Notes: generated by a model not told the origin, from the letters alone. Counted from the first letter of the stretch, positions 44,637-58,343 are shown. The stretch: DNA of 64,000 bases from an uncultured Gemmatimonadales bacterium (GCA_963730185.1 CAVSQW010000004.1:32001-96000); one strand, 5' to 3'. Made by a program: numbers and translations.

Positions 44637-45677
44637 TCAGCGGCCGCCGGTGGGTGGCCCGGCCACGACGTCGATCGAGACGCTCCGCCGTCGCTCCGCG
44701 TTGGCGGCGAGCGCGGCGTCATGCTCCCGCTGCCAGCTGGTCCGGAGGGCCTGGTTGGCCGCGAGGTGGGCCGCGGCGGCCCGGCCGGGCTGGCGGGTTA
44801 TGAAACCGATCACCCCGGCCAGGCTCAAGGTGGCGCCCGCGGCGTAGGGAGCCGGACCCAACGAGGTGCCGGAGGAGACCGCGTTGGGAACCACCGCCGC
44901 GAGCAGGCCGGTCGCCAGGCCACCCACCAGAAAGGCGATCGCCGGACCCTGATCGCGCCGTTCGGGGAAGAAGGCCGAGGCCGGGAGCGGGGTGGGGAGG
45001 GGAAGCGTGTCGGCCAGGGCGGCGGAGGCGGTGATCGGGACCGTCACCACCCGGTCGGCCGCCATTCGGGAGCGCGCTCGGATCCGGAGGTCGAAGCGCC
45101 CTCGCGCCGGCGCGCCGCCGGCCGCCCGGCCGTCCCAGGCGACCACGGCGCTGTCGCCGACGGCGCCGGTGTAGATCTCGCGGCCCTCGTCGGCTCCGTC
45201 GGCCGCCGCCAGCGTGACCGTCACGTCCAGGGGCGCGCTGGTGTACACCCGAAGCCGATAGGGATGTCCGGCATCGATCCGAAACGCGGGCGGCGCCGCC
45301 ACTGCGACGTAGTTGCTGGTCCGCCGCACGCCGTCGAACGCCTCGGTCACGGCCGGCGGGAAGATCAGGGCGTTGGGCCGGCTCTTGGGCGAGGTTTCGA
45401 GCGCTTCCCGAAATGCGGCTGCGGCGGCGTCGCGACGGCCGCCGAAGAGCTCCGCCGCGCCAAGGTAGATGAGGATGTCGGCCCGGGCCGAGTCGACCAG
45501 GGCCGCGGGACCGCCCACCGCCAGGCTTTGGCGCAGCAACGTGGCGGCGCTCTGGTATTCCAGGGCGCGATAGGCCGCGAGCCCCTTGGCCGCGAGATCG
45601 CCGGCATCCTGCCCCCAGGCAGGGGCGGCGGCCAGCGCGGTCAGCAAGACGAGCGTCCCGACCAGCCGCCGCATCAC
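44637..45677 (-). CDS. Exported protein with N-terminal TPR-like helices and C-terminal TM hairpin
   Basis: Signal peptide AAPAWG; helical 'GLAAYRALEY..AA..L' segment and FPP motif; overlaps the kinase stop. Confidence 0.65.
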   Translation of the reverse strand: MMRRLVGTLVLLTALAAAPAWGQDAGDLAAKGLAAYRALEYQSAATLLRQSLAVGGPAALVDSARADILIYLGAAELFGGRRDAAAAAFREALETSPKSRPNALIFPPAVTEAFDGVRRTSNYVAVAAPPAFRIDAGHPYRLRVYTSAPLDVTVTLAAADGADEGREIYTGAVGDSAVVAWDGRAAGGAPARGRFDLRIRARSRMAADRVVTVPITASAALADTLPLPTPLPASAFFPERRDQGPAIAFLVGGLATGLLAAVVPNAVSSGTSLGPAPYAAGATLSLAGVIGFITRQPGRAAAAHLAANQALRTSWQREHDAALAANAERRRSVSIDVVAGPPTGGR

Positions 45678-47182
45678 GACGCCGGCTCCAGGATCTGGTC
45701 GATCAGTCGCACCGCCTGGCCGGCCGGCACCACCACCTCGCGCTCGAACGGTGTGAACCCGTCGCGAACGATCCGGAGTCGATGAGTGCCAGCGGTGATC
45801 TCCACGTTGGCCTGGGGCGTGTTACCGATCAGCTTGTCGTCCACGTAAAGCGCTCCCCAGGGCCGCGAGCTCACGAAGAGCCGGCCGGTTTGGGCGTCGG
45901 AGGAAGCCACCCGTCCGGCGGCCGTGGTCTGGCGCGTCGGTTCGGGGCTCGGGCCGGGGCGTTCCGCTCTCGCGGCCGGCCGGGTGGCTGGTGCCGGCGG
46001 CGGTGTCGGCGCGGGCTCGTCGGGCGGCGGCTCGGCCGGGGCCACGGCCATCGTGGCGGTGTCGAGCGCCCCGCTGGTCGAGTCCGAGGCCGGGGCCACC
46101 GCCACCTGTCGACTCAGGCCAGGCTGGCTCCCGTTCGAGCGGAGAAACCAGGCGGCGAGCACCGCGCCGATCACGACCGCTGCGATGATGCCCCCGGTCA
46201 GCAGCGGGCTCCGGCGAGCGGGCGGCGCGTCGGAGACCTCGGGCTCGCCCGGGTCGGGGGGGAACACCAAGGTGTGCTGCGCCAGCGAGGGCGGCTGATG
46301 GCGGTGCGGTGCCCCGCCGGGGGCGGCTGCTCCGGCCAAGGCGGCAGCCAGGCTCCGCGCGAAGGTGCCGATCGTGGGGAACCGGTCGCGCGGGTCGGGG
46401 CTCAGGGCCCGGTTCACCACCCGATGCACGGCCGACGGAAGCTCCGCCGATTCGTCGACGGCGGCCCTGAAGGTCGCAGCGAGGGCGTACTGGTCGGTGG
46501 CCGGACCGGGGTCCCTGCCGGCCAGCTCCTCCGGGGATTCGAACTGCGCTGGCCGGCTCTTGCCGCCGAAGGCCGGAATCCGGTCGAGGATCGGTCCGAC
46601 CGCCAACTCGGTGAGGAGCGCCACCCCGCCGTCGTCGCAGACGATGATGTCGGCCGGACTCAGACTGCCGTGGATCACGTCGCGCCGGTGGGCCTCGTCG
46701 AGGGCATCGGCAGCCTGGCCCACCAACCGGGTTACCCGGTCCGGCGGCAGACGTCCCTGTCCCTGGAGCAGCTCCGCCAACGACTGCCCCCCGGCGAACC
46801 GGGTGGCGTACCAGGCCAGGTTGGCGGTGGTGCCGAAACGGTAGATGGGAACGATGTTGGGGTGATCCAGCGCGTTGACGGCCGCCATGGCACGCCACCA
46901 GCGGTCGGCCTGGCCGGCCCGTTCGATCGGCGCCCGCGACAGGACCCGGAGCGCCAAGGTCACGTCGGGATCGGCGCGACGGGCCACGTAGACGGCCGAG
47001 TGCGGGCTCCGGGCCAGCTCCTCGCCGATCTCGAATTGGGGGGAGAGCTCGTAGTGCACCCAGGCGTCGAGATCGTCCGGCAAAGGCCGATCAGAGGCTG
47101 CCCCGTCCGGCGAGTAGCCGCAACGCGCACACGTCCCCGTCTCCGGTGAGATCTCCTCGGCAGCGCAGAACGGACAGATCAC
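45674..47182 (-). CDS. Ser/Thr kinase-like pseudokinase with N-terminal Zn ribbon, TM helix and C-terminal PEGA domain
   Basis: CPFC..CARC, LDHPNIVPIY, SPEE and DQYAL motifs, but degenerate catalytic motifs; PEGA 'VSSRPWG.LYVD...GTHRLRI.RDG'. Confidence 0.85.
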   Translation of the reverse strand: MICPFCAAEEISPETGTCARCGYSPDGAASDRPLPDDLDAWVHYELSPQFEIGEELARSPHSAVYVARRADPDVTLALRVLSRAPIERAGQADRWWRAMAAVNALDHPNIVPIYRFGTTANLAWYATRFAGGQSLAELLQGQGRLPPDRVTRLVGQAADALDEAHRRDVIHGSLSPADIIVCDDGGVALLTELAVGPILDRIPAFGGKSRPAQFESPEELAGRDPGPATDQYALAATFRAAVDESAELPSAVHRVVNRALSPDPRDRFPTIGTFARSLAAALAGAAAPGGAPHRHQPPSLAQHTLVFPPDPGEPEVSDAPPARRSPLLTGGIIAAVVIGAVLAAWFLRSNGSQPGLSRQVAVAPASDSTSGALDTATMAVAPAEPPPDEPAPTPPPAPATRPAARAERPGPSPEPTRQTTAAGRVASSDAQTGRLFVSSRPWGALYVDDKLIGNTPQANVEITAGTHRLRIVRDGFTPFEREVVVPAGQAVRLIDQILEPAS

Positions 47183-47325: not shown

Positions 47326-48030
47326 CTAGTCCCCTCGGGCCAGGTCGGGTACCGGCACCCCGGCGTCGATTCGGGCCACCCGGGCGGCCTCCCCGGCGAT
47401 CCGGCGACGGACGCCGGCCAAGACGTCCTCGGCCCGCTCCCGAGGGACGAAGCAAACCCCGGTGTCGTCCGCCACCACGAGATCCCCTGGGTGGACGGTG
47501 ACCCCGTGGATCGAAACCGCCCCGTTGATGGCCACGGTCCGGAGCCGGTACTTGCCGGTCCGGGGGCTCGGTCCGCGGGCCCAGACCGGGAAGCCGAGCC
47601 GGCGGAGCCCGCCCACGTCCCGCACCGCGCCGTCGACCACCGCGCCGGCTTCGCGCTGCCGCCTGCCGATCCGGGCCGAGATGGCGCCCATGCTGGAGAC
47701 CTCGGGGGCGCCCTGGACAACGAGGACGTCGCCGGGCTCGGCGAGGTTGTGGCATTCCAGATCGCCCATCCGGCTCCCCGGCACCTCCACAGACCCCCGG
47801 AGCTCGGTGGCGACCGTGAGGGCTGGACCGACGATTCGCCCGCCGGCCACCATCGGCACCAGCACGCTGCCCGGCACGGCACCGTCGAGGCCGAGGGCGT
47901 CCAGGACGTCCGAGACCGTGCCGGTCAGGTCGTCGATCGCAAGCAGCTCTCGAAGCAGATCCGCCGGCGGCCGGGGAACCTCGCGAAGCCGGACCATCTC
48001 GGCCGGGAAGAGACCGGTGAGGGGGCGCAT
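47326..48030 (-). CDS. RraA family protein / HMG-CHA aldolase-like
   Basis: TVSDVLD, PGDVLVV, VVDGAVRD and PGDLVVADDTGV motifs. Confidence 0.88.
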   Translation of the reverse strand: MRPLTGLFPAEMVRLREVPRPPADLLRELLAIDDLTGTVSDVLDALGLDGAVPGSVLVPMVAGGRIVGPALTVATELRGSVEVPGSRMGDLECHNLAEPGDVLVVQGAPEVSSMGAISARIGRRQREAGAVVDGAVRDVGGLRRLGFPVWARGPSPRTGKYRLRTVAINGAVSIHGVTVHPGDLVVADDTGVCFVPRERAEDVLAGVRRRIAGEAARVARIDAGVPVPDLARGD

Positions 48031-48069
48031 GGCAGCGAGGTTACCGCGACGAGGACGGCTTGGCCATGG

Positions 48070-48942
48070 TCACCCTCGGAACCGGGGCTCGGGCAAGCCG
48101 ACGGCGGCGGTCCGGATGGCGAAGAGGGAGCCGGCCAAGGGTTCCCGGGCCAGCTGCTCCGGGGTCAAGCGCTGCCGGGCGGACGTGACGAACAGGGTGT
48201 CGAGTCCGGGGCCGCCGAAAGCGCAGCTGGTCGGGTTCGACACCGGCATGGGAATCACCCGGTCCACTCGACCGGCCGGCGTGTACCGCACCACCCGGCC
48301 GCCGGCATACTCGGCGTTCCAGAGACAGCCGTCGGCATCGACGGCGGAGCCGTCCGGTCGGCCCGGCGCGGCGGTCAGGTCGACCAGCACCCGCGGCGAC
48401 GACGGCACTCCGCGCTCGGCGTCGAAGGCGAAGGCCGAGATCCGATGGCGGTAGGTGTCGGCGAAGTACATGACCCGGGCGTCCGGGCTCCAGGCCAGGC
48501 TGTTGGGCACGATGACGTCGCCGAAGAGTCGGTGGCAAGCGCCGTCGGGGTCGAGCCGGTAGAGCGCGCCCGTGGGATCGCGGCGGACGTCGTTCATCGT
48601 TCCCGCCCAGAAGCGTCCCTGCCGGTCCACCCGGCCGTCGTTGAACCGGTTGTCCGGCTGATCGGCCTCGGGGTCGACGATCGGTTCGAGCATGCCGGTC
48701 TCGGGGTCGAGCCGGTGAAAGCCGTCGGCCATCGCGGCCACGAGTCCCGCCCCCTCGCGGAGCGCGATCGCCCCGACCAGCGACGGCAGGGGCACCCGGC
48801 GCGGCGAGGTGCCGCCGGACTCGATCCACTGGAGCGTGGGACCCCGGGCGTCGACCCAATAGAGGCGGCCGGACCGCTCGCACCACACCGGGCTCTCGCC
48901 CAGCCGATCGGTGCCCGGGACGATCGCGTCGACGGTGGTCAC
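48070..48942 (-). CDS. SMP-30/gluconolactonase/LRE family lactonase
   Basis: LGESPVW, NRFNDG.VD, PNSLAWSPD, PDG..VD.DG and PTSCAFGG motifs. Confidence 0.93.
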   Translation of the reverse strand: MTTVDAIVPGTDRLGESPVWCERSGRLYWVDARGPTLQWIESGGTSPRRVPLPSLVGAIALREGAGLVAAMADGFHRLDPETGMLEPIVDPEADQPDNRFNDGRVDRQGRFWAGTMNDVRRDPTGALYRLDPDGACHRLFGDVIVPNSLAWSPDARVMYFADTYRHRISAFAFDAERGVPSSPRVLVDLTAAPGRPDGSAVDADGCLWNAEYAGGRVVRYTPAGRVDRVIPMPVSNPTSCAFGGPGLDTLFVTSARQRLTPEQLAREPLAGSLFAIRTAAVGLPEPRFRG

Positions 48943-49919
48943 GCCGCCGGTGACCGATAGACCACGTTGCGCGGGGCCTCACCCCGGGCCACCCGATCGA
49001 TGTTGTCGGCGATCTCGGTCCAGCGCCGGTCGATCATCCCCCGGGTCCAGGCCGAGCAGTGCGGGGTCATCAACACGTTGTCGAGCTCGTGGAAGGGAAA
49101 GCGCGAGGGCCTGAGGTCGGGCGCCTCCGGCGTCGGATACCGATACCAGGTGTCGATCACCGCGCCGGCGATGGTGCGATCCACCAGGGCCCGATAGAGC
49201 GCCTCCTCCGCCACGATCGGGCCCCGGGAGACGTTGATCAGCACCGCGGTAGGGCGCATCGCGCGGAAGCTCTCGGCATCGATCAACCCCTCGGTCTCGG
49301 GGCCGAGACCCGACGCCACCACGACGAAGTCGCTCTCGGCGTAGAGGGCGGGCAGGGCGCCGAGGGGGCGGAGCCACGCGAGCCCGGGGGCCGGCCCCAC
49401 CCGCCGGGCGCAGGCCACCACCCGGGCGCCGAAGGCGCGGGCTCGGGGCACGATCGCCCGGCCGATCTGCCCGTAGCCGATCAACCCTACCGTCTTGCCG
49501 CCCAGCTCTTCCCCCAGCGGCCCGCCGGTCCGACCGCCCAAGGCCCAGCTCCCGGCCCGAAAGCTCCGTTCGGCGGCGAGGAACCGGGTGCCGGAGAGCA
49601 GCAGGCTCAAGAGGACGTACTCGGCGACCGCTTCGCCGTGTCCGTAGGCGTTGGCCACCACGGTGCCGGGTGGAAGCCGCCGGACGTCGATCCCATCGTA
49701 ACCCGTGCCGCCCGCCTGTACGAAGCGGAGCCTGGGGGCGGGGGGCATGCCGTCGTCGTAGTGGAGGGTGATCATCAGCTCCGCCGAGGCCAGCGCCTCC
49801 CGCCGGACCGGATCCGGAGCGTCGTCGGGCACCGGGACGATCTCGAGCGGGGTCCGGAGCTTCCCGACCAGGGTCGCGTGTTGCTCGCAGGCGAGCGAGC
49901 CGAGGAGCACGAGCCGCAC
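48939..49919 (-). CDS. D-2-hydroxyacid dehydrogenase family protein
   Basis: GYGQIG, INVSRG, AVID and MTPH motifs. Confidence 0.92.
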   Translation of the reverse strand: MRLVLLGSLACEQHATLVGKLRTPLEIVPVPDDAPDPVRREALASAELMITLHYDDGMPPAPRLRFVQAGGTGYDGIDVRRLPPGTVVANAYGHGEAVAEYVLLSLLLSGTRFLAAERSFRAGSWALGGRTGGPLGEELGGKTVGLIGYGQIGRAIVPRARAFGARVVACARRVGPAPGLAWLRPLGALPALYAESDFVVVASGLGPETEGLIDAESFRAMRPTAVLINVSRGPIVAEEALYRALVDRTIAGAVIDTWYRYPTPEAPDLRPSRFPFHELDNVLMTPHCSAWTRGMIDRRWTEIADNIDRVARGEAPRNVVYRSPAA

Positions 49920-49921
49920 GC

Positions 49922-50605
49922 TCAGCCGGCCGGTTCCAGCCGGACCCGACGGCGACCGTCGATGCCGAGGTAGCGGAGGAAGAGGCGGGTCAGCTCGTCG
50001 GCCAGGATCGGGGCGGGGAACGCGGAGCCGCCCGGCCAGCGCTCGTCGAAGAGCACCAGCTCGCGGAGCGTGCTCCGGATGGTCAGGAGCCCGATCTCGA
50101 GCCCCCGCTCCGGATCAGGATGGCGGATCCCGCCGTGGCGAAGCAGGAAGTCGAGCACCCGCGGCGGACCCTCGGCGTTGAGCCGCTCGAGTCGCCTCCG
50201 AAGGCCGGCATCGGTGTGCGACCGGAGGACCAGCGCCCGGCCGGCGCCCCGGGTGGCGTGGTACACCGTCACCAGGTCGTCGAGGTAGGCGCGGAGGGCC
50301 TCGGCCACCGTGGTCCCCTGCCAGCGGGCCGGGTCGGTGGCCCGAGACACCACGCCGAGCACCGCGTCGGTGACCCGCTCCTCGAGCGCCTCGAGCAGGG
50401 CATCCTTGTCGGGGAAGCGAGCGTAGAAGGCGCCGATCGTTACCCCCGCCCGCTCGGCCACCGCGGCGACGCTCACCGCCTCGAAGCTCCGGTCGGCGAG
50501 GAGGGCCTCGGCGGCGTCGAGCATCCGGCGATAGGTCGCCTGGCTCCGGGCCTGTCGGGGGGCCCGGGTGCGCGACCGGCGGCGGGGGCGGCTTGCAGAA
50601 AACAT
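49922..50605 (-). CDS. TetR/AcrR family transcriptional regulator
   Basis: RQARSQATYRRMLDAA and VAERAGVTIGAFYARFPDK motifs. Confidence 0.9.
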   Translation of the reverse strand: MFSASRPRRRSRTRAPRQARSQATYRRMLDAAEALLADRSFEAVSVAAVAERAGVTIGAFYARFPDKDALLEALEERVTDAVLGVVSRATDPARWQGTTVAEALRAYLDDLVTVYHATRGAGRALVLRSHTDAGLRRRLERLNAEGPPRVLDFLLRHGGIRHPDPERGLEIGLLTIRSTLRELVLFDERWPGGSAFPAPILADELTRLFLRYLGIDGRRRVRLEPAG

Positions 50606-50620
50606 AGTGAATGCTATGAT
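50593..50620 (+). promoter_or_regulatory. Promoter (TTGCAG-16-TATGAT, extended TG) overlapped by CATAG-N6-CTATG operator
   Basis: Palindrome 50603-50618 covers the tetR start codon and the -10 of the rightward operon. Confidence 0.65.
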
Positions 50621-50653
50621 ATTTGATCGAAGCTCCGCATCCGTCAAGAGGCC

Positions 50654-51454
50654 ATGTCCCAGCCGTCGACCATCACTCGGGTCACCCTGCGCCGGGTTGC
50701 CGGCCCGCCGAGCCTCCTCTTGGCCGAGGTCGGTGACGGTCGTTGGACCGGGCTGGCCACCGCGGCGGACCGGCCCGGGCTGGCCGAGGCCGCGGGGCGG
50801 CGGGGGGCCGGGTGGATCGGTCGCTCGGCCGACCACGGACCGGGGCCGGGCGCGATCGGGGGCGACTGGCTCCGCGACGATGCGGACTGGACGGCGTTCG
50901 GGCTGCTTGAATCGGCCCGGCACGATCTGGCCGCCCGCCGGCATGACGTCCCGCTCTGGCGGTGGCTGGGCGGCGCGGTGCGACGAGTGGTGGGGGTGAG
51001 CGGGTCGACGGACGAGCGTCCGGCCGGAGCCGGCGGGCCCCGGGTGGCGGACCCGTCGCGCTGGTCGGAGCTCCAGGGCGACCTGCTGGCCGACCGGGTC
51101 GACGGGCTCAGGGTGGATCCGTTGCGGGCAGGTGGACCCGCCGGGGTGCTCCGGCTCGACGCCATCGCGCGAACCTTCCGGGTCGGGCTCGCGCTCGCCT
51201 CCGGTGCCACCCTGGCCGGCCGGGCGTTGGCGGTTCACCTGGCCATGGCGGCCACGATGGCAAGCCTCCCGCTCGACTGGCCGGACGACGACCCGCCGGA
51301 CCAGGCATGGCTCGGCCCGGCCCGGGCCTATCGGCCCGACGGGGGCCGGGTGACCGCGCCGGAGGCGGCGGGATTGGGGCTCGCGATCGAGGCCGGCCGG
51401 TTGGGGCCGTTGGTAACCGAGCGCTGGTCTCTGGGCGAGGACGACCGCGGGTGA
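50654..51454 (+). CDS. Internally truncated enolase-superfamily (MR/MLE-like) protein
   Basis: Capping-domain motif ESARHDLAARRHDVPLWRWLGG and C-terminal PEAAGLGL are present; most of the barrel is absent (266 aa). Confidence 0.65.
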   Translation: MSQPSTITRVTLRRVAGPPSLLLAEVGDGRWTGLATAADRPGLAEAAGRRGAGWIGRSADHGPGPGAIGGDWLRDDADWTAFGLLESARHDLAARRHDVPLWRWLGGAVRRVVGVSGSTDERPAGAGGPRVADPSRWSELQGDLLADRVDGLRVDPLRAGGPAGVLRLDAIARTFRVGLALASGATLAGRALAVHLAMAATMASLPLDWPDDDPPDQAWLGPARAYRPDGGRVTAPEAAGLGLAIEAGRLGPLVTERWSLGEDDRG

Positions 51455-52626
51455 GCGGGGCGCTCCGGATCGAGCGGGTGCGGCTCAGCCGGGTGAAGAT
51501 CCCGCTCGCCACCGTGTACGTGAGCTCGATGTACGTGATGCCCGCCACCTGGCGCACGGTGATCGAGGTGGAGGCGGGCGGCGGGTTGGTCGGCCTGGGC
51601 GAAACGCTGGGCACGGACGAGGTCTTCCGCCTGACGGCCGCGCTCGCGAGCCGCTGGATCGGACACGACCCCCTGGACCGGCGCGGGTTGACGGCGAGCT
51701 TCGCCCGCTCGGGCTTCGACAACCGGGCCGGCCGGAACGGGTGGTCGGCGCTGGGGGGGCTCGAGCTGGCCCTCTGGGACCTGGCGGGCCGGGCGTTCGG
51801 GGTGTCGGTCTCGGCCCTCCTGGGTGGGGCGACCCGCGAGCGGGTCGAGCTGGTCTGCCCGATCCCGGCCGTGGCGGTGGAGCGGCCGGTCACCCCGGTG
51901 GAGCTCGACCGTCACCAGGCCGACCTGGGCAACGTGGACCGGGTGGCCGACTGGGCCGAGGCGCAGCGGGAGCAGTCGGGGTTCGGCGCGTTCAAGTACA
52001 AGAGCACCGCCCGGTCGCCGGCGTGGGACGAGGCGGTGATGCGCGCGCTCCGGGCGCGGCTCGGGGCCGAGGCGCGCCTCCGGTTCGATCCCAACGGCGG
52101 GTATCCGCCGGTCGAGGCGATCCGGCTCTGCGATCGCTTGGAGGAGCTGGACCTGGAGTTCTTCGAGGATCCGACCGACGACTTGGAGGGTCTGGCTCGG
52201 CTCCGGCGGCGGGCCCGCACCCCGGTTGCCACCAACATGGCTGTGGTGGAGCCGGCTCATCTGCCCGCGGCGATTCGACGGAAGGCGGTGGACGTGGTGC
52301 TGGCGGACGTCTTCATGTGGGGTGGGGTGGGCCGGTGGCGCGATCTCGTCGCGGTGGCCGACGGTTTCGGGCTCGAGGTCGGGGTCCACAGCCTGTTCGA
52401 GACGGGCGTGGCCACGGCGCTGAACCTCCACCTGGCGGCTGCCCATCCATCCATCCGCCGGGCCAACGACTCGGGCCTCCACCTGATGGGGGCCGACGTC
52501 ACCACCGGGCTCGGCCCGATCGCGAACGGGGCGCTCGGGGTGCCGACCGGCCCGGGACTTGGGGTGACGCTCGACCGGGCCGAGCTCGATCGCTGGACCG
52601 TCGGCCCGGTCACCGTGGTGGACTGA
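51451..52626 (+). CDS. Enolase-superfamily dehydratase/cycloisomerase, glucarate-dehydratase-like subgroup
   Basis: GLGET, ELALWDL, KxK (KYK), DPN, EDP, TNM, HS and PGLGV motifs; GTGA overlap. Confidence 0.87.
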   Translation: MSGALRIERVRLSRVKIPLATVYVSSMYVMPATWRTVIEVEAGGGLVGLGETLGTDEVFRLTAALASRWIGHDPLDRRGLTASFARSGFDNRAGRNGWSALGGLELALWDLAGRAFGVSVSALLGGATRERVELVCPIPAVAVERPVTPVELDRHQADLGNVDRVADWAEAQREQSGFGAFKYKSTARSPAWDEAVMRALRARLGAEARLRFDPNGGYPPVEAIRLCDRLEELDLEFFEDPTDDLEGLARLRRRARTPVATNMAVVEPAHLPAAIRRKAVDVVLADVFMWGGVGRWRDLVAVADGFGLEVGVHSLFETGVATALNLHLAAAHPSIRRANDSGLHLMGADVTTGLGPIANGALGVPTGPGLGVTLDRAELDRWTVGPVTVVD

Positions 52627-52631
52627 CGATC

Positions 52632-53372
52632 ATGGCCGGCCCCGTCTCGACCGTTCCGCCCAGCGATCCCGCGGGGCAGCCCGCCCGGGCCATCGCGGGG
52701 TATCCGCGGAGCCTGGACCGGACCCCTGCCGCCGAGCCGATCCGGCGCTTTCTCTCCCGGGCCGACCTGTTGGGTCCGGCCCGGGTGATCGAGGCCGCGG
52801 CCGTCTCCGTGCTCGACCTGTCCCGGCTCCGCCCCACGGCGCCTCGAGCGCTGGGACAGCTGGTCCGGGTGAGGGGTCGGGTGCTCGACGAGGACGGCCG
52901 ACCCGTCTCGGGCGCGGTGCTCGAGGTGTGGCAGGCCAACGCCGCCGGCAAGTACCTCCATCCCAACGATCCCTCGCCGGTGCCGGTCGATCCCAACTTC
53001 GCCGGGGTGGGGCGGATCGTGGTGGGTCCGGACGGGGGGTTCGAGCTCGTCACCATCAAGCCGGGCGCCTACGCGGTCCCGTACGAGGAACAGGGCGGTG
53101 CCACCGACTGGTGGCGCCCGCCGCACATCCACGTCTCGATCTTCGGGCCCGCCTTCGCGAGCCGGTTGGTGACCCAGGTGTACTTCCCCGGCGAGGTGCT
53201 GAACGAGCGCGACCTCCTGCTCAACAGCATCCCCGACCCGCGGGCTCGGGAGCGGCTGGTGGCCCGGTTCGTCCCGGCGCTCTCGACCGCGACCGGCGGG
53301 TTGGGTTTCGCCCACGACCTGGTGCTCCGAGGCCGCCGCGCGACGCCCTTCGAGCGGGGCGGACATGCCTGA
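52632..53372 (+). CDS. pcaH: Intradiol ring-cleavage dioxygenase, protocatechuate 3,4-dioxygenase beta-like
   Basis: GRVLDEDGRP, EVWQANAAGKY, TIKPGAY, WRPPHIH and LVTQVYFPG motifs; both Tyr and both His Fe ligands are present. Confidence 0.85.
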   Translation: MAGPVSTVPPSDPAGQPARAIAGYPRSLDRTPAAEPIRRFLSRADLLGPARVIEAAAVSVLDLSRLRPTAPRALGQLVRVRGRVLDEDGRPVSGAVLEVWQANAAGKYLHPNDPSPVPVDPNFAGVGRIVVGPDGGFELVTIKPGAYAVPYEEQGGATDWWRPPHIHVSIFGPAFASRLVTQVYFPGEVLNERDLLLNSIPDPRARERLVARFVPALSTATGGLGFAHDLVLRGRRATPFERGGHA

Positions 53373-53958
53373 GCTGCGAACGCCGCACCACACCACCGGG
53401 CCCTTCTTCCCGCCGGCCTTCGTGGGCGAGAGCGGAAGTGACCTGACCCGGCACGGCGGACGCGTCGCCGAGGGCACGGTCCTCGAGCTGGCCGGCCGGG
53501 TCCTGGACCGGCGCGGCCGCCCGGCGGTCAACGTGATCCTCGAGCTCTGGCAGGCCGACGCCCGAGGGGTGTTCCACGACCCGGCCGACCCTCGCCACGC
53601 CGAGCGCGACCCGGGCTTCGCGGGCTGGGGGCGGACCTGGACCGACTCGCACGGAGGGTACCGGTTCCGGACGGTGCGGCCGGGGAGCTATCCCGCGCTC
53701 GATGCCGGTGACTGGATCCGCCCGCCGCATCTCCGGCTCCTGGTGCTCGGGTCGGGGCTGATGCGCCCGCTGGTGACGGAGGTGTTCTTCCCCGGCGAGC
53801 CGCTCAACGAAACCGACCGCCATTGGAGCCAGCTCGGGCCGGAGCGCCGGGGCCGCCTGCTCGCGGTGCCGGCGCCCGATGGGTCGAGCGCCGGGGAGCG
53901 GTTCGGATTCGACCTGGTGCTGAGCGGCCCCCACGAGACCCCATTCCTGGACGACTGA
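53365..53958 (+). CDS. pcaG: Protocatechuate 3,4-dioxygenase alpha-like subunit
   Basis: TP..TTGPFF, ELWQADARG, F.GWGR and FDLVL...ETPF motifs. Confidence 0.8.
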   Translation: MPELRTPHHTTGPFFPPAFVGESGSDLTRHGGRVAEGTVLELAGRVLDRRGRPAVNVILELWQADARGVFHDPADPRHAERDPGFAGWGRTWTDSHGGYRFRTVRPGSYPALDAGDWIRPPHLRLLVLGSGLMRPLVTEVFFPGEPLNETDRHWSQLGPERRGRLLAVPAPDGSSAGERFGFDLVLSGPHETPFLDD

Positions 53959-53972
53959 TCGAGAGAGATGCC

Positions 53973-54338
53973 ATGATCGTCGAGCATCGGACCTACACCC
54001 TGAAGCCGGGCACCCTGAACGAGTACTTCCGCCTCTACCAGTCGGAGGGCCTGCCGATCCAGCGGCGCTACCTCCCCGCGATGGTCGGGTACTACACCAC
54101 CGAGGTCGGTCCGCTGAACCAGGTGATCCACCTCTGGGCTTATCGGACGTTCGAGGAGCGCACGGCCTGCCGGACCGCCATGCGGGCCGACCCGGGTTGG
54201 GCTCCCTATCTCGGCAAGATCCATCCGCTGCTGGTCACGATGGAGAGCAAACTCCTGACCCCGGCGCCCTTCTTCGACGTCGCCTCCCTGATCGAGGCGC
54301 TTTCCGGCACCCCCGCCGGGAAAGGACCCGACGCATGA
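53973..54338 (+). CDS. NIPSNAP family protein
   Basis: EHRTYTLKPG, GPLNQVIHLWAY and LLTPAPF motifs. Confidence 0.9.
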   Translation: MIVEHRTYTLKPGTLNEYFRLYQSEGLPIQRRYLPAMVGYYTTEVGPLNQVIHLWAYRTFEERTACRTAMRADPGWAPYLGKIHPLLVTMESKLLTPAPFFDVASLIEALSGTPAGKGPDA

Positions 54339-55852
54339 CCGCCGCTTCCCGAGCCTCGACCCCGGCCCCGCCGGCGCCCGAGCCCACGGGTGCCCGACGG
54401 GGCGCCGACCTCCTGAACCGCCTCCGCGAAGCGCCGCCGGAGCTCTGGTACCGCGGCGAGCGGGTGCCCGACCCGACGGCGCACCCGGCCCTGCGCCGGG
54501 GGCTGGCCTCCCTGGCGGGACTCTACGACCTCCAGTGGGAGGATCCGGACACCATGCTGTTCGACTCGCCGAGCAGCGGACGGAAGGTGGGCCGGTCGTT
54601 CATGATCCCGAGAACCGCCGGCGACCTGGACCGGATCTCCGCCGCGATGAAGCGCTGGGCCGACGCGAGCTTCGGGATGATGGGACGCTCGCCGGACTAC
54701 ATCAACCGGGCGATGACGTCCTACGCCGCCGGCTCGGCGTTTCTGGGCGAGGCCGACCCCCGGTTCGGGGTCAACGCCCGCGCCTATCACGAGTACATCC
54801 GGGAGCGCGACCTCTGCCTCACCCACACCCTGAGCTCGCCCCAGGCCAACCGCTCCCGCCACGCCGCCCAGCAGGCCGACCCGTTCCTGGCGGCCAAGGT
54901 CAAGGAGGAGACCGACGCCGGGATCGTGATCCGAGGTTGCCGGATGCTGGCGACGCTCCCGGTGTCCGACGAAATCATGGTCTTTCCGTCGACCTTCCTC
55001 CGGAACGAGCCGGACCATGAGCCCTATGCCTACGGGGTTTGCATCCCCTCGGCGACGCCCGGGCTCCGGTTCCAGTGTCGGGAGAGCTACGACTACGAGC
55101 GGTCCAGCTACGACCACCCGCTGGCCTCGCGGTTCGAGGAGATGGATGCGGTGGTGATCTTCGACGACGTGTTCGTGCCCTGGGAGCGGGTCTTCCTCTA
55201 TCGCGACATTCCCCGGTGCAACGAGGCGTACGCCCGGACCGGCGCGCTCGCGGCCATGGCGCACCAGGTGGTCGTCAAGAACCTGGCCAAGGCCGAGTAT
55301 CTCATGGGGCTGGCCTCGCTCCTGGTCGACACGATCGCGATCGAGGGCTTTCAGCACGTCCAGGAGAAGCTGGCCGAGATCTGGGTCAACATGGAGACGA
55401 TGCGGGCCTTTCTCCGGGCCTCCCTGGCCGACGCCGAGGTCGACGAGTTCGGGGTGATGCGCCCGGCGTGGGACCCGCTCGACGCGGCCCGGAACCTCCA
55501 TCCCCGGCTCTACCCCCGGATGGTCGAGATCATCCAGCAGCTCGGCGCCGCCGGATTGGTGGCCATGCCCACCGAAGCCGACGTGACCGGGCCGCTCGCC
55601 GCCGACGTCCAACGGTTCTTCCAGGCCGCCCGGGCGGAGGCCCACGAGCGGATCCCGATCTTCCGGCTGGCCTGGGACACGGCGATGTCGGCCTTCGGGT
55701 CGCGGCAGGTGCTCTACGAGCGCTACTTCTTCGGCGATCCGGTTCGGATGGCGGGCGCGCTGGTGGCGAGTCACGACCGGAAACGCTACATGGACCGGGT
55801 GCGCCACTTCCTCGAGCAGTCGCGCGACGAGGCGGCCCGGGCGGCGGGATGA
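54335..55852 (+). CDS. hpaB: 4-hydroxyphenylacetate 3-monooxygenase-like oxygenase component
   Basis: GMMGRSPDY, THTL..PQ.NR, DHPL.SRFEEMDA, FQHVQEK and RQVLYERYFFGDP motifs. Confidence 0.9.
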   Translation: MTAASRASTPAPPAPEPTGARRGADLLNRLREAPPELWYRGERVPDPTAHPALRRGLASLAGLYDLQWEDPDTMLFDSPSSGRKVGRSFMIPRTAGDLDRISAAMKRWADASFGMMGRSPDYINRAMTSYAAGSAFLGEADPRFGVNARAYHEYIRERDLCLTHTLSSPQANRSRHAAQQADPFLAAKVKEETDAGIVIRGCRMLATLPVSDEIMVFPSTFLRNEPDHEPYAYGVCIPSATPGLRFQCRESYDYERSSYDHPLASRFEEMDAVVIFDDVFVPWERVFLYRDIPRCNEAYARTGALAAMAHQVVVKNLAKAEYLMGLASLLVDTIAIEGFQHVQEKLAEIWVNMETMRAFLRASLADAEVDEFGVMRPAWDPLDAARNLHPRLYPRMVEIIQQLGAAGLVAMPTEADVTGPLAADVQRFFQAARAEAHERIPIFRLAWDTAMSAFGSRQVLYERYFFGDPVRMAGALVASHDRKRYMDRVRHFLEQSRDEAARAAG

Positions 55853-56397
55853 CGATCGACGGCCAGGCCTTCCGCCGGGCGATGGGGCATTTCGCCACCG
55901 GCGTCGGGGTGATCACCGCCGACCGCGAAGGCGCGGTGCGCGCCATGACCGCCAACGCCTTCACGTCGGTCTCGCTCGACCCTCCGCTGGTGCTGGTGGC
56001 CCTGGACCGGCGGACCCGGATGGCCGGATTGCTCGACCCGGGGACGGGATTCGCGGTCAATCTGCTGCGGGAGGACCAGCAGGCCTTGAGCCGGTTCTTC
56101 GCCGGCGCCTGGAAAGAGGCCGCCCGGCCCCCGTTTCGGTTCGTCCCGTTCGCCGGGGGGCCGCGGCTCGAGGGCGCCTCCGCCACGGTCGGCTGCGAGG
56201 TCGACCGGCGCCACGACGGGGGCGATCACTGGCTCGTCGTCGGCCGGGTGCTCGATGTCCACGTCGGGGTGACGCCCCACTACCCGCTGGTCTTTTTCCG
56301 GGGCGAGTACCGGGAGCTGGCCCGGGACCATGTGACCGAAGCGCCGGAGATCGAGCTGGGCGGCGAGTCGGCCCAGGTCTTCTACGAGTCCTGGTAG
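55849..56397 (+). CDS. hpaC: Flavin reductase (HpaC-like)
   Basis: FRRAMGHFATGV, MTANAFTSVSLDPPLV and GGDHW motifs; ATGA overlap with hpaB. Confidence 0.88.
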   Translation: MTIDGQAFRRAMGHFATGVGVITADREGAVRAMTANAFTSVSLDPPLVLVALDRRTRMAGLLDPGTGFAVNLLREDQQALSRFFAGAWKEAARPPFRFVPFAGGPRLEGASATVGCEVDRRHDGGDHWLVVGRVLDVHVGVTPHYPLVFFRGEYRELARDHVTEAPEIELGGESAQVFYESW

Positions 56398-58343
56398 TGG
56401 CCGCCGGTCCGGTCCTGCCCCCGCTGGAGGCCGAATGGCTGGAGGCCGATGGGCTCGGCGGGTTCGCCTCGGGTACCGCCGGCGGCCCGCGGCGGCGGCG
56501 CTACCATGCCCTCCTGCTGACGGCCCTGACGCCGCCGACCGGCCGGGTCGCTCTGGTCGGGGGCTTCGACGCCTGGGTGGAGCGCGACGGCCGGCCACCC
56601 GAGTTTCTGACCGTTCAGCGCTACGTCCCCGACCTGACCTCGCGGACGTTCGATCATCTGGTCGGCTTCGAGTGGGATCCCTGGCCGGCCTGGACGTTCC
56701 GGTTGGCCGACGGACTCGAGATCCGGCAGGAGCTGCTCGCGACCAAGGGCCGGGCCGTGGTGGCGATCCGGTGGCGGCTGCTCCGGAAGCGCGGCGGGAT
56801 CCGGCTGGTGGCTCGGCCGTTCCTGCTGGGTCGCGACGCCCACGCGCTGCACCGAGAGAACCCCGACTTCCGGTTCGATGCCCAGGTCGCCGGCGGCACG
56901 GTGCGCTGGCGGCCGTACGGCTCGCTCCCCGGCGTTCTCAGCCTCCAGAACGGCGTCTATCGCCACGACCCCGTCTGGTACCGGGCCTTTCAGCTCGACG
57001 AGGAGCGGGCCCGGGGACTCGACTTCACGGAAGACGCGGGATCGCCGGGTCGAATCGAGTGGGACCTGTCGGCCGGGCAGGCTGCGTGGGTCCTGGCCGC
57101 CGATGATCCCGCCGGCAAGGCGGAGGGCCTCGACGGGCCGGCCGAGACGATCGTCGCCCGCCTGGTCCGGCGGGAACGAGCCCGCCGGTCGCGCTGGGCC
57201 ACGCCCCTGGTTCGCGCCGCGGACGCCTACCTGGTGGCTCGGGGCGCGGGCCGCTCGATCGTCGCCGGCTATCCCTGGTTCACCGACTGGGGGCGCGACA
57301 CCTTCATCGCGATGCGGGGGCTCTGCCTGGCGACCGGACGTCTGGCCGACGCCCGGTCGATCCTCGGGACCTGGGCGGAGACGGTGTCGGAGGGAATGCT
57401 TCCCAATCGCTTTCCGGACGGCGGCGATCCGGAGTTCAACTCGGTCGACGCCTCCCTCTGGTACGTGGTGGTGGTGGGTGAGGTGCTCGAGGCGCTCGCC
57501 GCGGCCGGCCGGTCGCTCGGGCGGGGCGAGCGCGGGCGCCTGTTGGGGGCGGTGGACGCCATCCTCACCGGCTACGCCAGGGGCACCCGCTACGGAATCC
57601 GGATGGACGAAGACGGCTTGATCGCCGCCGGCGAGCCCGGGGTCCAGTTGACCTGGATGGATGCCAGAGTCGGCGACCGGGTCGTGACCCCCCGGATCGG
57701 GAAGCCGGTCGAGGTCCAGGCGCTCTGGATCGCCGCGCTCCGGGTGGGGCAGGGCCTCGACCGGCGCTGGGGCACCGTCGCCGACCGGGCCACGGCGGCG
57801 TTCGCCGATCGGTTCTTCGATCCCGACCGCGGGGCGCTCCGCGACGTGGTCGACGTCGACCACGTGGCGGGGCGGGTGGACGGCTCGCTCCGGCCCAATC
57901 AGATCTTCGCCGTGGGCGGGCTGCCGGTCCGGCTCTTGGAGCCGGCCCGCGAGGCGGCGGTCGTCGATCTGGTGGAGCGGGAGCTGCTCACCCCGGTCGG
58001 CCTCCGGAGTCTCGGTCCGGCTGAGCCGGGTTACCGGGGCCGATACGAGGGCGGTCCCGCCGAGCGCGACTCGGCCTACCATCAAGGGACCGTCTGGCCC
58101 TGGTTGTTGGGGCCCTTCGTCGAGGCGTGGCTCCGGCGCCGGGGAGCCGGTCCCGCCGAACGGGCGGCGGCCCGGGAGCGGTTTCTCGCGCCCCTTCTGG
58201 CCCATCTCGGTGAGGCCGGACTCGATCACGTTTCGGAGATCGCCGACGGCGAGCCGCCGTTCACGCCGCGAGGCTGCCCGTTCCAGGCCTGGTCGGTGGG
58301 CGAGGCGCTCCGGATCGAGCGCCTGACCCGATCCGGAGCCTGA
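56397..58343 (+). CDS. Glycogen debranching enzyme / amylo-alpha-1,6-glucosidase (GH133-like)
   Basis: EWLEADGLGGFASGT, AGYPWFTDWGRD, LTWMDA, LRPNQ, YHQGTVWPW and QAWSV motifs. Confidence 0.93.
   Translation: MAAGPVLPPLEAEWLEADGLGGFASGTAGGPRRRRYHALLLTALTPPTGRVALVGGFDAWVERDGRPPEFLTVQRYVPDLTSRTFDHLVGFEWDPWPAWTFRLADGLEIRQELLATKGRAVVAIRWRLLRKRGGIRLVARPFLLGRDAHALHRENPDFRFDAQVAGGTVRWRPYGSLPGVLSLQNGVYRHDPVWYRAFQLDEERARGLDFTEDAGSPGRIEWDLSAGQAAWVLAADDPAGKAEGLDGPAETIVARLVRRERARRSRWATPLVRAADAYLVARGAGRSIVAGYPWFTDWGRDTFIAMRGLCLATGRLADARSILGTWAETVSEGMLPNRFPDGGDPEFNSVDASLWYVVVVGEVLEALAAAGRSLGRGERGRLLGAVDAILTGYARGTRYGIRMDEDGLIAAGEPGVQLTWMDARVGDRVVTPRIGKPVEVQALWIAALRVGQGLDRRWGTVADRATAAFADRFFDPDRGALRDVVDVDHVAGRVDGSLRPNQIFAVGGLPVRLLEPAREAAVVDLVERELLTPVGLRSLGPAEPGYRGRYEGGPAERDSAYHQGTVWPWLLGPFVEAWLRRRGAGPAERAAARERFLAPLLAHLGEAGLDHVSEIADGEPPFTPRGCPFQAWSVGEALRIERLTRSGA

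Follow-up and report, generated by a model that had tools for sequence, protein, structure and literature searches.

A conserved gene cluster of an uncultured Gemmatimonadales bacterium likely encodes an intradiol route for 4-hydroxyphenylacetate that substitutes for HpaD meta-cleavage, likely finishes with an aldol split and bypasses beta-ketoadipate. To the core of this reading (a hydroxyphenylacetate feed, intradiol cleavage and an aldol end), which is shared by the two step orders weighed below, we assign a probability of about 0.7 to 0.75. The cluster occupies positions 47326..56397 of the window, i.e. the whole 64,000-nt stretch of DNA analysed (GCA_963730185.1 CAVSQW010000004.1:32001-96000), whose own genome, here G000, is 82% complete. 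A check of the genes in the window found all 11 present and intact, so that the divergent gene set around tetR named in an earlier, sequence-only reading is confirmed gene by gene in position and strand (Table 1). Spacing ranges from -8 to 48 nt, with five overlaps. Seven of the genes, namely those for the lactonase, RraA, the two enolase-fold proteins, the PcaHG-like pair and NIPSNAP, are referred to as the cassette.

Table 1. Features of the locus, with positions counted from the first letter of the window
Feature	Position	Strand	Basis
RraA-like	47326..48030	-	PF03737 100 bits
SMP-30/gluconolactonase-family lactonase	48070..48942	-	PF08450 294 bits
D-2-hydroxyacid dehydrogenase	48939..49919	-	PF02826/PF00389
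tetR, TetR-family regulator	49922..50605	-	PF00440
Inverted repeat CATAG-N6-CTATG	50603..50618		read from sequence
eno1, degenerate, truncated enolase-fold protein, predicted non-catalytic	50654..51454	+	PF13378 43 bits
eno2, enolase-superfamily enzyme	51451..52626	+	catalytic residues aligned with GudD
pcaH-like, intradiol dioxygenase beta subunit	52632..53372	+	ligands aligned with P. putida beta
pcaG-like, intradiol dioxygenase alpha subunit	53365..53958	+	PF00775
NIPSNAP-family protein	53973..54338	+	PF07978 96 bits
hpaB, 4-hydroxyphenylacetate 3-monooxygenase oxygenase, Thermus type	54335..55852	+	TIGR02309
hpaC, HpaC-type flavin reductase	55849..56397	+	PF01613 132 bits

The cluster is conserved and not a chance array, because the same enzyme genes recur elsewhere, as the sequence-only reading required. 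All ten form a single operon in three genomes of the same genus (G005, G006 and G021) and are split across two contigs in two others (G004 and G014), while G777, from another family, possesses a near-identical operon with nine of the ten, eno1 being missing. In these six other genomes every gene except eno1 retains 41-75% identity, and in five relatives the operon is hosted by the paa (phenylacetate) locus. The divergent operons around tetR, which heads the leftward unit, are present here but not general: tetR had no match in any relative locus retrieved, and because the relatives have one operon headed by a GntR gene (GntR/FCD in G006), the divergent arrangement is a local rearrangement. Within the 48-nt divergent gap, an inverted repeat with arms of just 5 bp spans the tetR start codon and is a possible operator; a sigma-70 scan passed no site.

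The feed of the route is indicated by HpaBC and its partners. HpaB scores 637 against TIGR02309 (HpaB-1, cut-off 480), and in an alignment to 2yyg its R118, Y122, H164, S219 and T220 correspond to Thermus R100, Y104, H142, S197 and T198, residues whose roles are given in the available part of PMC10816480; the Ser/Thr pair, to which the substrate binds in Thermus HpaB, is retained. The best NCBIfam match of HpaC is HpaC_Thermus (135, below the cut-off of 200), and in the relatives hpaC adjoins hpaB or shares its operon. Homoprotocatechuate is a product of tyrosine breakdown, and HpaD is the standard extradiol enzyme that opens its ring. HpaB of the type found here occurs in 16 of the 22 genomes of the genus, ten of which have HpaD without the cassette and six the cassette without HpaD. 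Indeed, HpaD (TIGR02295) was found in none of the seven cassette genomes, i.e. the six in the genus and G777; a second profile, TIGR02298, was silent everywhere, controls included, and has no bearing on the presence of HpaD. Similarly, hpaD, hpaF and hpaH gave no match in G000 (82% complete), and G007 holds HpaD together with HpaE, HpaG and HpaH, all above cut-off. A Fisher test on this alternation gives p = 1.2e-4, which is overstated because just one change suffices on the HpaB tree (support 66/82; one to three changes in bootstraps), and the alternation may reflect a single evolutionary event. Nevertheless, it suggests that the feed is 4-hydroxyphenylacetate/homoprotocatechuate, which narrows a substrate that the earlier reading had left open. 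Between cassette and HpaD genomes the active-site motifs of HpaB are identical and only two positions, both outside the motifs, separate the groups, so that HpaB bears no mark of a double-hydroxylating enzyme.

The ring would be opened by an intradiol dioxygenase that belongs to a distinct clade and has an altered pocket. The beta chain of protocatechuate 3,4-dioxygenase uses two Tyr and two His as iron ligands, plus an active-site Arg, and all of these are kept in the PcaH-like subunit, whose Y109, Y148, R162, H165 and H167 align (to 2pcd_M) with P. putida Y108, Y147, R157, H160 and H162. Like the PcaHG of the beta-ketoadipate pathway (pcaHGBCDIJF), it is an alpha/beta enzyme with the catalytic Arg in place. 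It differs in that both subunits fall below their NCBIfam cut-offs (TIGR02422, 206 against 296; TIGR02423, 113.5 against 126), that V150 stands at P. putida W149 (Trp449 -> Val), that Ser130 of the alpha subunit takes the position of Arg133, which we take to bind carboxylate (LGSGLMR here, canonically FARGI), and that PcaH-like branches outside the canonical/ScaH clade (SH-aLRT 100). Arg is present at alpha 133 in all 54 Trp-type loci with a readable motif. The 4-sulfocatechol dioxygenase of Novosphingobium resinovorum SA1 (type II PcaHG; ScaH) likewise has Trp449 -> Val and has lost the alpha Arg133, with Lys in its stead. However, the shared Val looks convergent, because ScaH nests within the canonical PcaH clade, unlike the PcaH of the locus.

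Enzymes of the known exits are missing behind this dioxygenase. In a profile search PcaB stayed under cut-off in all six cassette genomes examined, and in G000 (82% complete) pcaB was not found, pcaC had no match and pcaD-like matches reached 31-36% identity, the best 32-36%; the lack of hpaD, pcaB, pcaC and pcaD that had been noticed in the window thus extends, apart from these distant pcaD-like matches, to the genome, where no canonical set was found. The Fe-ADH/maleylacetate reductase family (PF00465) and acetoacetate-CoA ligase were each absent from the six cassette genomes, and G000 showed no PobA, no sulfomuconolactone hydrolase and no counterpart of the cycloisomerase, sulfolactone hydrolase or maleylacetate reductase of the ScaH route. 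G000 also carries a 3-oxoacid CoA-transferase gene adjoining one for HMG-CoA lyase. A patchwork or decaying cluster, with PcaHG an ordinary protocatechuate enzyme among unrelated neighbours, is favoured by the degenerate state of eno1 and by the best 80 GTDB PcaH loci of a first scan, in which the other genes are almost entirely lacking. But those 80 comprise 76 Trp-type, one Tyr-type, two Val-type and one unreadable locus, and in sister genomes with Trp-type PcaH, pcaB, pcaD, pcaC and pobA adjoin, whereas G000 has no pcaB, pcaC or pobA; as the operon recurs at the identities given above, this explanation appears largely refuted by conservation and is hardly credible.

In another view, a different ring is cleaved (unsubstituted catechol or pyrogallol, a sulfonated catechol or a substituted protocatechuate), supplied by HpaBC or other funnels, the lack of HpaD being incidental. 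The N. resinovorum enzyme shares W449V, the Val-type clade has other branches whose neighbours are CoA ligase/transferase, HMG-CoA-lyase-like or fumarase-like genes, and a 13-kb metagenome locus (L155) has a UbiD-family decarboxylase gene adjoining the cassette. Moreover, the G777 operon contains a malonate-semialdehyde dehydrogenase (MMSDH) gene (TIGR01722, 502 against a cut-off of 448), which would fit pyruvate and malonate semialdehyde formed from pyrogallol. We nonetheless consider another ring unlikely in view of the retained Ser/Thr pair of HpaB, the alternation with HpaD, the separate position of ScaH and the absence from G000 of sulfomuconolactone hydrolase, maleylacetate reductase and PobA.

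Two enolase-superfamily genes are present, as had been read, but just eno2 has catalytic residues, and these are of the glucarate dehydratase type. Its K182, K184, D213, N215, E239, N262, D286, H313 and D340 match the catalytic and metal positions K205, K207, D235, N237, E260, N289, D313, H339 and D366 of E. coli GudD and are 99-100% conserved in 120 homologs. At 29% identity to GudD, eno2 scores 100 against TIGR03247 (cut-off 829), A140, L315 and G342 replace GudD Tyr150, Asn341 and His368, and His343 is not kept either. In the muconate lactonising subgroup a second Lys lies at the sixth strand; eno2 has Asp286 there and scores 105 against TIGR02534 (cut-off 335), and it was rejected as a muconate-lactonising enzyme. 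By its catalytic set it is likely a hydratase or cycloisomerase. The profile match of eno1 to eno2 is 97.5%, the catalytic motifs are not conserved in eno1, and an eno1-like N-terminal extension of ~200 aa occurs on four of the 120 eno2 homologs. A complex of the two is predicted (0.88, best control 0.00), and eno1, which is degenerate, is predicted to be a non-catalytic partner subunit of eno2. The arrangement resembles GudD and its partner GudX, an adjacent paralog pair with a solved complex (4gyp), although GudX has decayed far less than the truncated eno1.

LigK/GalC enzymes carry the full metal motif D-X20-R-D. Among 120 homologs of the RraA-like protein the upstream Asp is invariably Ala or Gly, while R137 and D138 are kept in all and E214 in 119. 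The protein scores 71 against TIGR02798 (LigK, cut-off 304.5), is present in six of the 22 genus genomes, exactly those with the cassette, and is likely a 4-hydroxy-2-oxoacid aldolase/beta-decarboxylase. In genome G918 an RraA ortholog adjoins an amidohydrolase that, among NCBIfam families, best matches a lactone hydrolase. The lactonase matches regucalcin structures (E 4e-51) and is 55-66% identical across cassette loci; NIPSNAP, at 58-67%, retrieved NIPSNAP clusters alone in an Atlas search and is possibly a tautomerase or isomerase. By motif alone, R137, D138 and E214 match the catalytic Arg123 and the metal ligands Asp124 and Glu199 of LigK/GalC in the accessible portion of PMC5065237. With the LigK-type route, as described in passages of PMC5065237 and PMC11393088, the proposed logic shares the hydrolysis of a lactone, a tautomerisation, a hydration and an aldol cleavage by an RraA-fold enzyme. 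The two have no more than the aldolase fold in common, however, and this below the LigK cut-off; the candidates for lactonase, hydratase and tautomerase belong to different families, a PcaHG-type enzyme cleaves the ring and the side chain is one carbon longer.

The 2-hydroxyacid dehydrogenase, which reaches no NCBIfam cut-off, does lie in the leftward unit but appears to go with the hpaB-hpaC module and not with the cassette. It is intact in seven of seven cassette genomes and in eight of ten HpaD genomes (lost or cut in the other two), under similar constraint (relative-divergence ratio 2.34 against 2.20). Since cassette-free genomes retain it, it may have no role once the ring is cleaved; it would rather work upstream, on aryl 2-hydroxy/2-oxo acids. 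Its coupling to hpaB could also suit a route in which 4-hydroxyphenyllactate or -pyruvate keeps its side chain during hydroxylation and cleavage, lactonisation, lactone opening, side-chain oxidation and aldol cleavage then giving pyruvate and maleylacetate. Each family would here perform textbook chemistry, with a single hydration and a single oxidation in all, and G777 has a sodium-dependent transporter gene directly behind the regulator. Given that PF00465 is absent from the six cassette genomes and that HpaD in sister genomes draws on the same HpaB, we hold it to be quite improbable.

For the preferred route we propose, tentatively and at somewhat less than even odds for the exact order, that HpaBC would convert 4-hydroxyphenylacetate to homoprotocatechuate and hydroxylate this again to 3,4,5-trihydroxyphenylacetate. 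The PcaHG-like enzyme would cut between two hydroxyls to yield 4-carboxymethyl-2-hydroxymuconate and its 2-pyrone, the lactonase would open the pyrone, NIPSNAP would tautomerise, and eno2, partnered by eno1, would add water to form 4-carboxymethyl-4-hydroxy-2-oxoadipate. RraA would split this into pyruvate and 3-oxoglutarate, from which it may also form acetoacetate by decarboxylation. From the trihydroxy acid the balance requires one water and no redox step, and the seven cassette genes include no oxidoreductase, which together support this order, as does the similar constraint on the dehydrogenase where the cassette is lacking; W449V and R133S in the pocket, the paa setting of the operon in five relatives, the G918 neighbour of RraA and the CoA-transferase/HMG-CoA lyase pair of G000 also count in favour of the route. 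Against it stand the HpaB motifs shared with HpaD genomes, the missing acetoacetate-CoA ligase, the loss or truncation of the dehydrogenase in two HpaD genomes, the Acetobacteraceae loci described below, L155, where the dehydrogenase adjoins the cassette and HpaBC is absent from the locus, and the G777 MMSDH, which fits a ketone product poorly unless unsubstituted pyrogallol is also taken.

The close rival, possible but on balance doubtful, has the same feed and the same kind of end: homoprotocatechuate would be cleaved directly to 3-carboxymethyl-cis,cis-muconate, eno2 would perform a 1,6 (vinylogous) lactonisation or a hydration, and after lactone opening the dehydrogenase would oxidise the new 2-hydroxy acid. 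Following a second hydration, RraA would split the C8 acid into pyruvate and 3-oxoglutarate or into 2-oxoglutarate and malonate semialdehyde. This is the simplest reading of the alternation with HpaD and fits the unchanged HpaB; its two waters and one oxidation agree with the dehydrogenase in all seven cassette genomes and L155, the latter split would account for the G777 MMSDH, and eno2 lies immediately 5' of pcaH in most loci. On the other hand, a 1,6-addition is not known to us from any member of the enolase superfamily, the dehydrogenase persists in eight of ten genomes lacking the cassette, and MMSDH occurs in 22 of 22 genus genomes, with one operon alone tying it to the route.

The new ortho-cleavage route of the sequence-only reading therefore survives in part, as a conserved, non-canonical set with neither pcaBCD nor hpaD behind it: the two outcomes that sequence could have turned against it, no co-occurrence elsewhere and canonical pca genes in the genome, did not arise, while its substrate, enolase type, dehydrogenase role and operon layout are revised. 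The homoprotocatechuate meta pathway (hpaBC + hpaDEFGHI), in which a final aldol cleavage sets pyruvate free, shares the HpaBC entry and takes the corresponding place in sister genomes, but here an intradiol Fe(III) heterodimer would open the ring and the lower enzymes are unrelated. In Acetobacteraceae, eno2-PcaHG occurs without adjacent SMP-30, NIPSNAP or a close RraA. We think it rather probable that the cluster represents a second, hitherto undescribed central route for 4-hydroxyphenylacetate, in which an intradiol dioxygenase from a large clade without characterised members and a pseudo-enzyme/enzyme enolase pair with a new hydration or vinylogous lactonisation bypass beta-ketoadipate towards an aldol end. 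On this view the HpaD route and the intradiol route have replaced one another, in whichever direction, within one genus, and Proteobacteria combine the dioxygenase-enolase core with different lower pathways.

The eleven genes that the sequence-only reading had placed divergently about tetR were borne out by an ORF listing, start mapping and Pfam, and the gaps within the cluster range from -8 to 48 nt. HpaB is its sole protein over an NCBIfam cut-off (TIGR02309, 637 against 480), PcaH, PcaG, the enolases, RraA, the dehydrogenase and HpaC each lying under theirs, and the names of close homologues lead to Gemmatimonadales. A recent foreign origin was rejected on composition, as GC3 is 0.89-0.93 in the cluster and 0.87-0.89 in three flanking genes, and a promoter and terminator scan of the cluster gave no signal exceeding shuffles. 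The hpaC stop overlaps by 1 nt a glycogen-debranching-like gene (GDE_N/GDE_C), which adjoins hpaC in none of the relatives examined and is probably unrelated to the cluster. Another neighbour encodes a protein that is kinase-like, carries a PEGA domain and has a weak Pfam kinase score (37 bits), and in which an N-terminal CxxC-like stretch precedes the kinase-like part; after it comes a 346-aa gene without a Pfam match.

The cluster is real and conserved, and its genes do co-occur elsewhere. Three genomes of the same genus (G005, G006, G021) carry a single operon hpaB-hadh-smp30-rraA-eno1-eno2-pcaH-pcaG-nips-hpaC (hadh being the dehydrogenase), two others (G004, G014) have the identical gene order spread across two contigs, and G777, from another family, has the operon minus eno1 and plus an additional aldehyde dehydrogenase. 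Because the relatives' operons form one unit with GntR as regulator, the divergent TetR layout of the window reads as a local rearrangement. In five relatives the operon is located at the phenylacetate locus. PcaH matches occur in 19 of 151 related genomes (five of the same genus, at 58-62%), and none of the relatives' seven Trp-type PcaH loci has any cluster gene, two carrying pcaB, pcaD, pcaC and pobA instead. The first GTDB scan with PcaH as query is misleading by itself and speaks wrongly against the cluster: its best 80 loci, 76 with a canonical Trp-type PcaH, gave three dehydrogenase matches and one each for enolase, hpaC and NIPSNAP.

The full cassette of seven genes (SMP-30 lactonase, RraA, eno1, eno2, PcaH-like, PcaG-like, NIPSNAP) is rare, since eno2 is present in only 4 of 401 genomes of the phylum, the window's own among them. 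Outside the phylum, an RraA ortholog was found in 1/251, 0/401, 0/5 and 0/29 genomes of four sets; in the family around Roseomonas 18 of 401 genomes have eno2, 13 of them with pcaHG adjacent, and searches of plasmids for the cluster were negative. Among 34 metagenome loci, on contigs that are mostly short and of which the two longest (L141, L144) have different neighbours, 33 have PcaHG, five an eno2 match and one (L155) lactonase, RraA and dehydrogenase; L155 also has NIPSNAP and PcaHG, and HpaBC is absent from its contig. A gene without a Pfam match (Pfam tested for L146) lies immediately upstream of eno1 or pcaH at three metagenome loci (Table).

Table. Coordinates of the cluster and of features in and around related loci
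Feature	Locus	Positions
Eleven-gene cluster	window	47326..56397
Glycogen-debranching-like gene	window	56397-58343
Kinase-like gene	window	45674-47182
Conserved gene upstream of eno1/pcaH	L139	3-617
Same	L146	3700-4431
Same	L152	374-1234
Val-type PcaHG with CoA-related neighbours	L144	8633-16196
Same	L006	3459-11339
Same	L186	
Val-type PcaHG near fumarase-like subunits	L161	11950-24248
Same	L188, L190, L194, L135	
In-operon MMSDH (G777)	L199	12178-13656
Aminotransferase and TPP enzyme	L233	1495-4714
Same	L234	11415-14101
Short GntR / hpaB-dehydrogenase-hpaC operons, ten genus genomes	L218, L219, L222-L229	

The beta chain of the dioxygenase, the genome's only intradiol enzyme, retains both Tyr, both His and the Arg known from the P. 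putida enzyme and has Val for Trp449; the alpha chain has Ser at the canonical FARG Arg position. This Arg was read at 54 of 54 Trp-type loci and at none of the Val-type ones (n = 32, two of them beta-chain mis-hits). The best 120 PcaH homologues divide into 78 with Y-A-V-P, 21 with another non-Trp residue and 21 with Trp. The N. resinovorum 4-sulfocatechol enzyme shares Val at this position but nests within the canonical clade, from which the window's PcaH is separated (SH-aLRT 100, from a quick tree built on 165 of 220 rows, for which one canonical row in three was kept); 4-sulfocatechol orthology was therefore rejected.

Other Val-type branches have MarR, CoA ligase, CaiB transferase and enoyl-CoA hydratase neighbours, with an HMG-CoA-lyase-like gene in addition at L144 and L186 and a muconate-cycloisomerase-like enolase at L006/L007, and a CoA-dependent lower route is possible there. 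A further group lies near class I fumarase/tartrate-dehydratase-like subunits, GST and GntR, and occurs also in cultured Paracoccus marcusii. At four loci (L182, L183, L185, L192) the Trp449 loop of the PcaH beside eno2 is Y-R-A, which suggests an additional pocket type. Orthologs of eno2 (P0167, P0172) in cultured Roseomonas species offer potential test strains.

At nine catalytic and metal positions eno2 agrees with E. coli GudD, and the muconate-lactonising label was rejected on a score under the NCBIfam cut-off and on the residue alignment. As Tyr150, Asn341 and His368 of GudD are lost, eno2 is placed by family neither with glucarate dehydratase, the label its subfamily relatives often bear, nor with muconate-lactonising enzymes. 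Its partner eno1 is a decayed paralog of 266 aa; an eno1-like N-terminal extension was seen in 4 of 120 eno2 homologues (weak BLAST hits). An eno1-eno2 complex was predicted at 0.88 (best control 0.00), a mark that 116 of 157 solved pairs attain, as do 2 of 215 mismatched ones, with at least 76% of contacts agreeing between runs and partner pLDDT of at least 84. This may reflect family likeness only, because solved enolase-family dimers include GudD/GudX.

RraA conserves an Arg-Asp and a C-terminal Glu, which match by motif residues named in PMC5065237, and its subfamily has 1573 matches at E<=1e-50 among 8000 scored. The dehydrogenase, of the DxWYxYP subfamily, has Arg and His motifs intact in 15 of 15 intact copies; its divergence relative to HpaB is similar with and without the cassette (2.20 and 2.34), and it is kept in short hpaB operons although no function within the HpaD route is known for it. 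For NIPSNAP, an Atlas search yielded no further information. As regards canonical exits, pcaB is under cut-off in each of the genus's six cassette genomes, and the maleylacetate exit was rejected, its reductase family being absent from the same six. The window's genome has a CoA-transferase adjoining HMG-CoA lyase, through which it could use acetoacetate, and no ligase for this acid.

The best evidence on the substrate, which the sequence-only reading had left unnamed, is an either-or pattern with HpaD. HpaB was found in 16 of 22 genus genomes. Ten have HpaD over cut-off, and their locus consists of GntR, hpaB, dehydrogenase and hpaC with nothing inserted (G001 is without the dehydrogenase, and in G018 it is cut); in one of the ten HpaD stands together with HpaE, HpaG and HpaH, all over cut-off (G007), and comparable genes flank it in four further loci inspected by eye. 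The remaining six have the cassette and no HpaD, with RraA in exactly those 6 of 22. G777 likewise has the cassette without HpaD; G012 has HpaD and no HpaB match. Since one HpaB type feeds either HpaD or the cassette, the pattern suggests that homoprotocatechuate, or the compound next formed from it, is what the cassette consumes. On the HpaB tree, with cassette genomes (the window's and G777) as outer rows, the label requires one change only (support 66/82; bootstraps 1-3), so that HpaD and cassette may have been exchanged just once, and the pattern is weaker than its Fisher value, 1.2e-4, would indicate. Upstream of two meta operons lie an aminotransferase and a PRK08266-type TPP enzyme (with HpaR in L233), a candidate hydroxyphenylpyruvate decarboxylase supplying 4-hydroxyphenylacetate (4-HPA). 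The TPP-enzyme family stands under HpaR by the meta operon in G009, adjoins that of G012, and also adjoins eno2-pcaHG in four Acetobacteraceae loci (51-53% identity).

A pyruvate-type aldolase requires a 4-hydroxy-2-oxo acid. Starting from homoprotocatechuate and O2 the balance calls for two waters and one oxidation, and from 3,4,5-trihydroxyphenylacetate for one water and zero redox; the cassette contains no oxidoreductase, and its make-up of lactonase, small isomerase-fold protein, hydratase and aldolase mirrors the gallate/PDC lower route. PcaHG is reported to produce a 2-pyrone from pyrogallol (PMC6628648), a product that would call for a lactonase, and an A. baumannii enzyme, of a different type, is reported to hydroxylate 4-HPA twice (PMC10816480). 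On these grounds we favour, with a probability of roughly 0.4, a route in which 4-HPA would be double-hydroxylated to 3,4,5-trihydroxyphenylacetate and yield pyruvate and 3-oxoglutarate. Against it counts the HpaB pocket, which is unchanged between cassette and HpaD genomes. A CoA-acylating methylmalonate-semialdehyde dehydrogenase (MMSDH; TIGR01722 over cut-off) inside the G777 operon, where it overlaps both neighbours and where a gene for a sodium-dependent transporter lies behind that for GntR, likewise hints at malonate semialdehyde; this hint is weakened because MMSDH occurs in every one of the 22 genus genomes and G777 possesses a further copy, containing a stop codon, next to an aminotransferase. 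Presence of neither the MMSDH nor the acetoacetate-CoA ligase profile tracks the cassette. Both the unaltered pocket and the in-operon MMSDH would be accounted for by direct cleavage of homoprotocatechuate with the dehydrogenase as oxidant, which we consider only slightly less probable than the favoured route; it requires a vinylogous addition, for which we know of no precedent.

No publication describing an intradiol route for homoprotocatechuate, or the gene set, emerged from a literature search, although precedent in subscription journals is possible. Contzen and Stolz reportedly worked on type II enzymes, and the Dagley laboratory is said to have worked on Trichosporon and on an Arthrobacter making 3-ketoglutarate from trimethoxyphenylacetate; an enzymological precedent without genes is thus possible. 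The accessible parts of PMC10832562, PMC9338888 and bioRxiv 10.1101/2025.08.13.670189 hold nothing decisive for the route. All parts of the cluster are known folds; what appears new is how they are combined and that HpaD is displaced, and the cluster probably represents a new variant among the routes that break down aromatic rings. In textbooks homoprotocatechuate is a substrate of extradiol enzymes, and intradiol cleavage leads into beta-ketoadipate; the cluster, if our reading is true, would break both links. The protocatechuate route may be overcounted in metagenomes, because Trp is absent in 99 of the 120 nearest PcaH homologues, yet the named ones mostly carry the label protocatechuate 3,4-dioxygenase. 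Lignin engineers report lacking a dioxygenase together with a lactonase for pyrogallol-type rings (PMC6628648). Finally, the cluster offers a testable substrate for its PcaHG-like clade and candidate functions for an enolase subfamily, an abundant RraA subfamily and a bacterial NIPSNAP protein.
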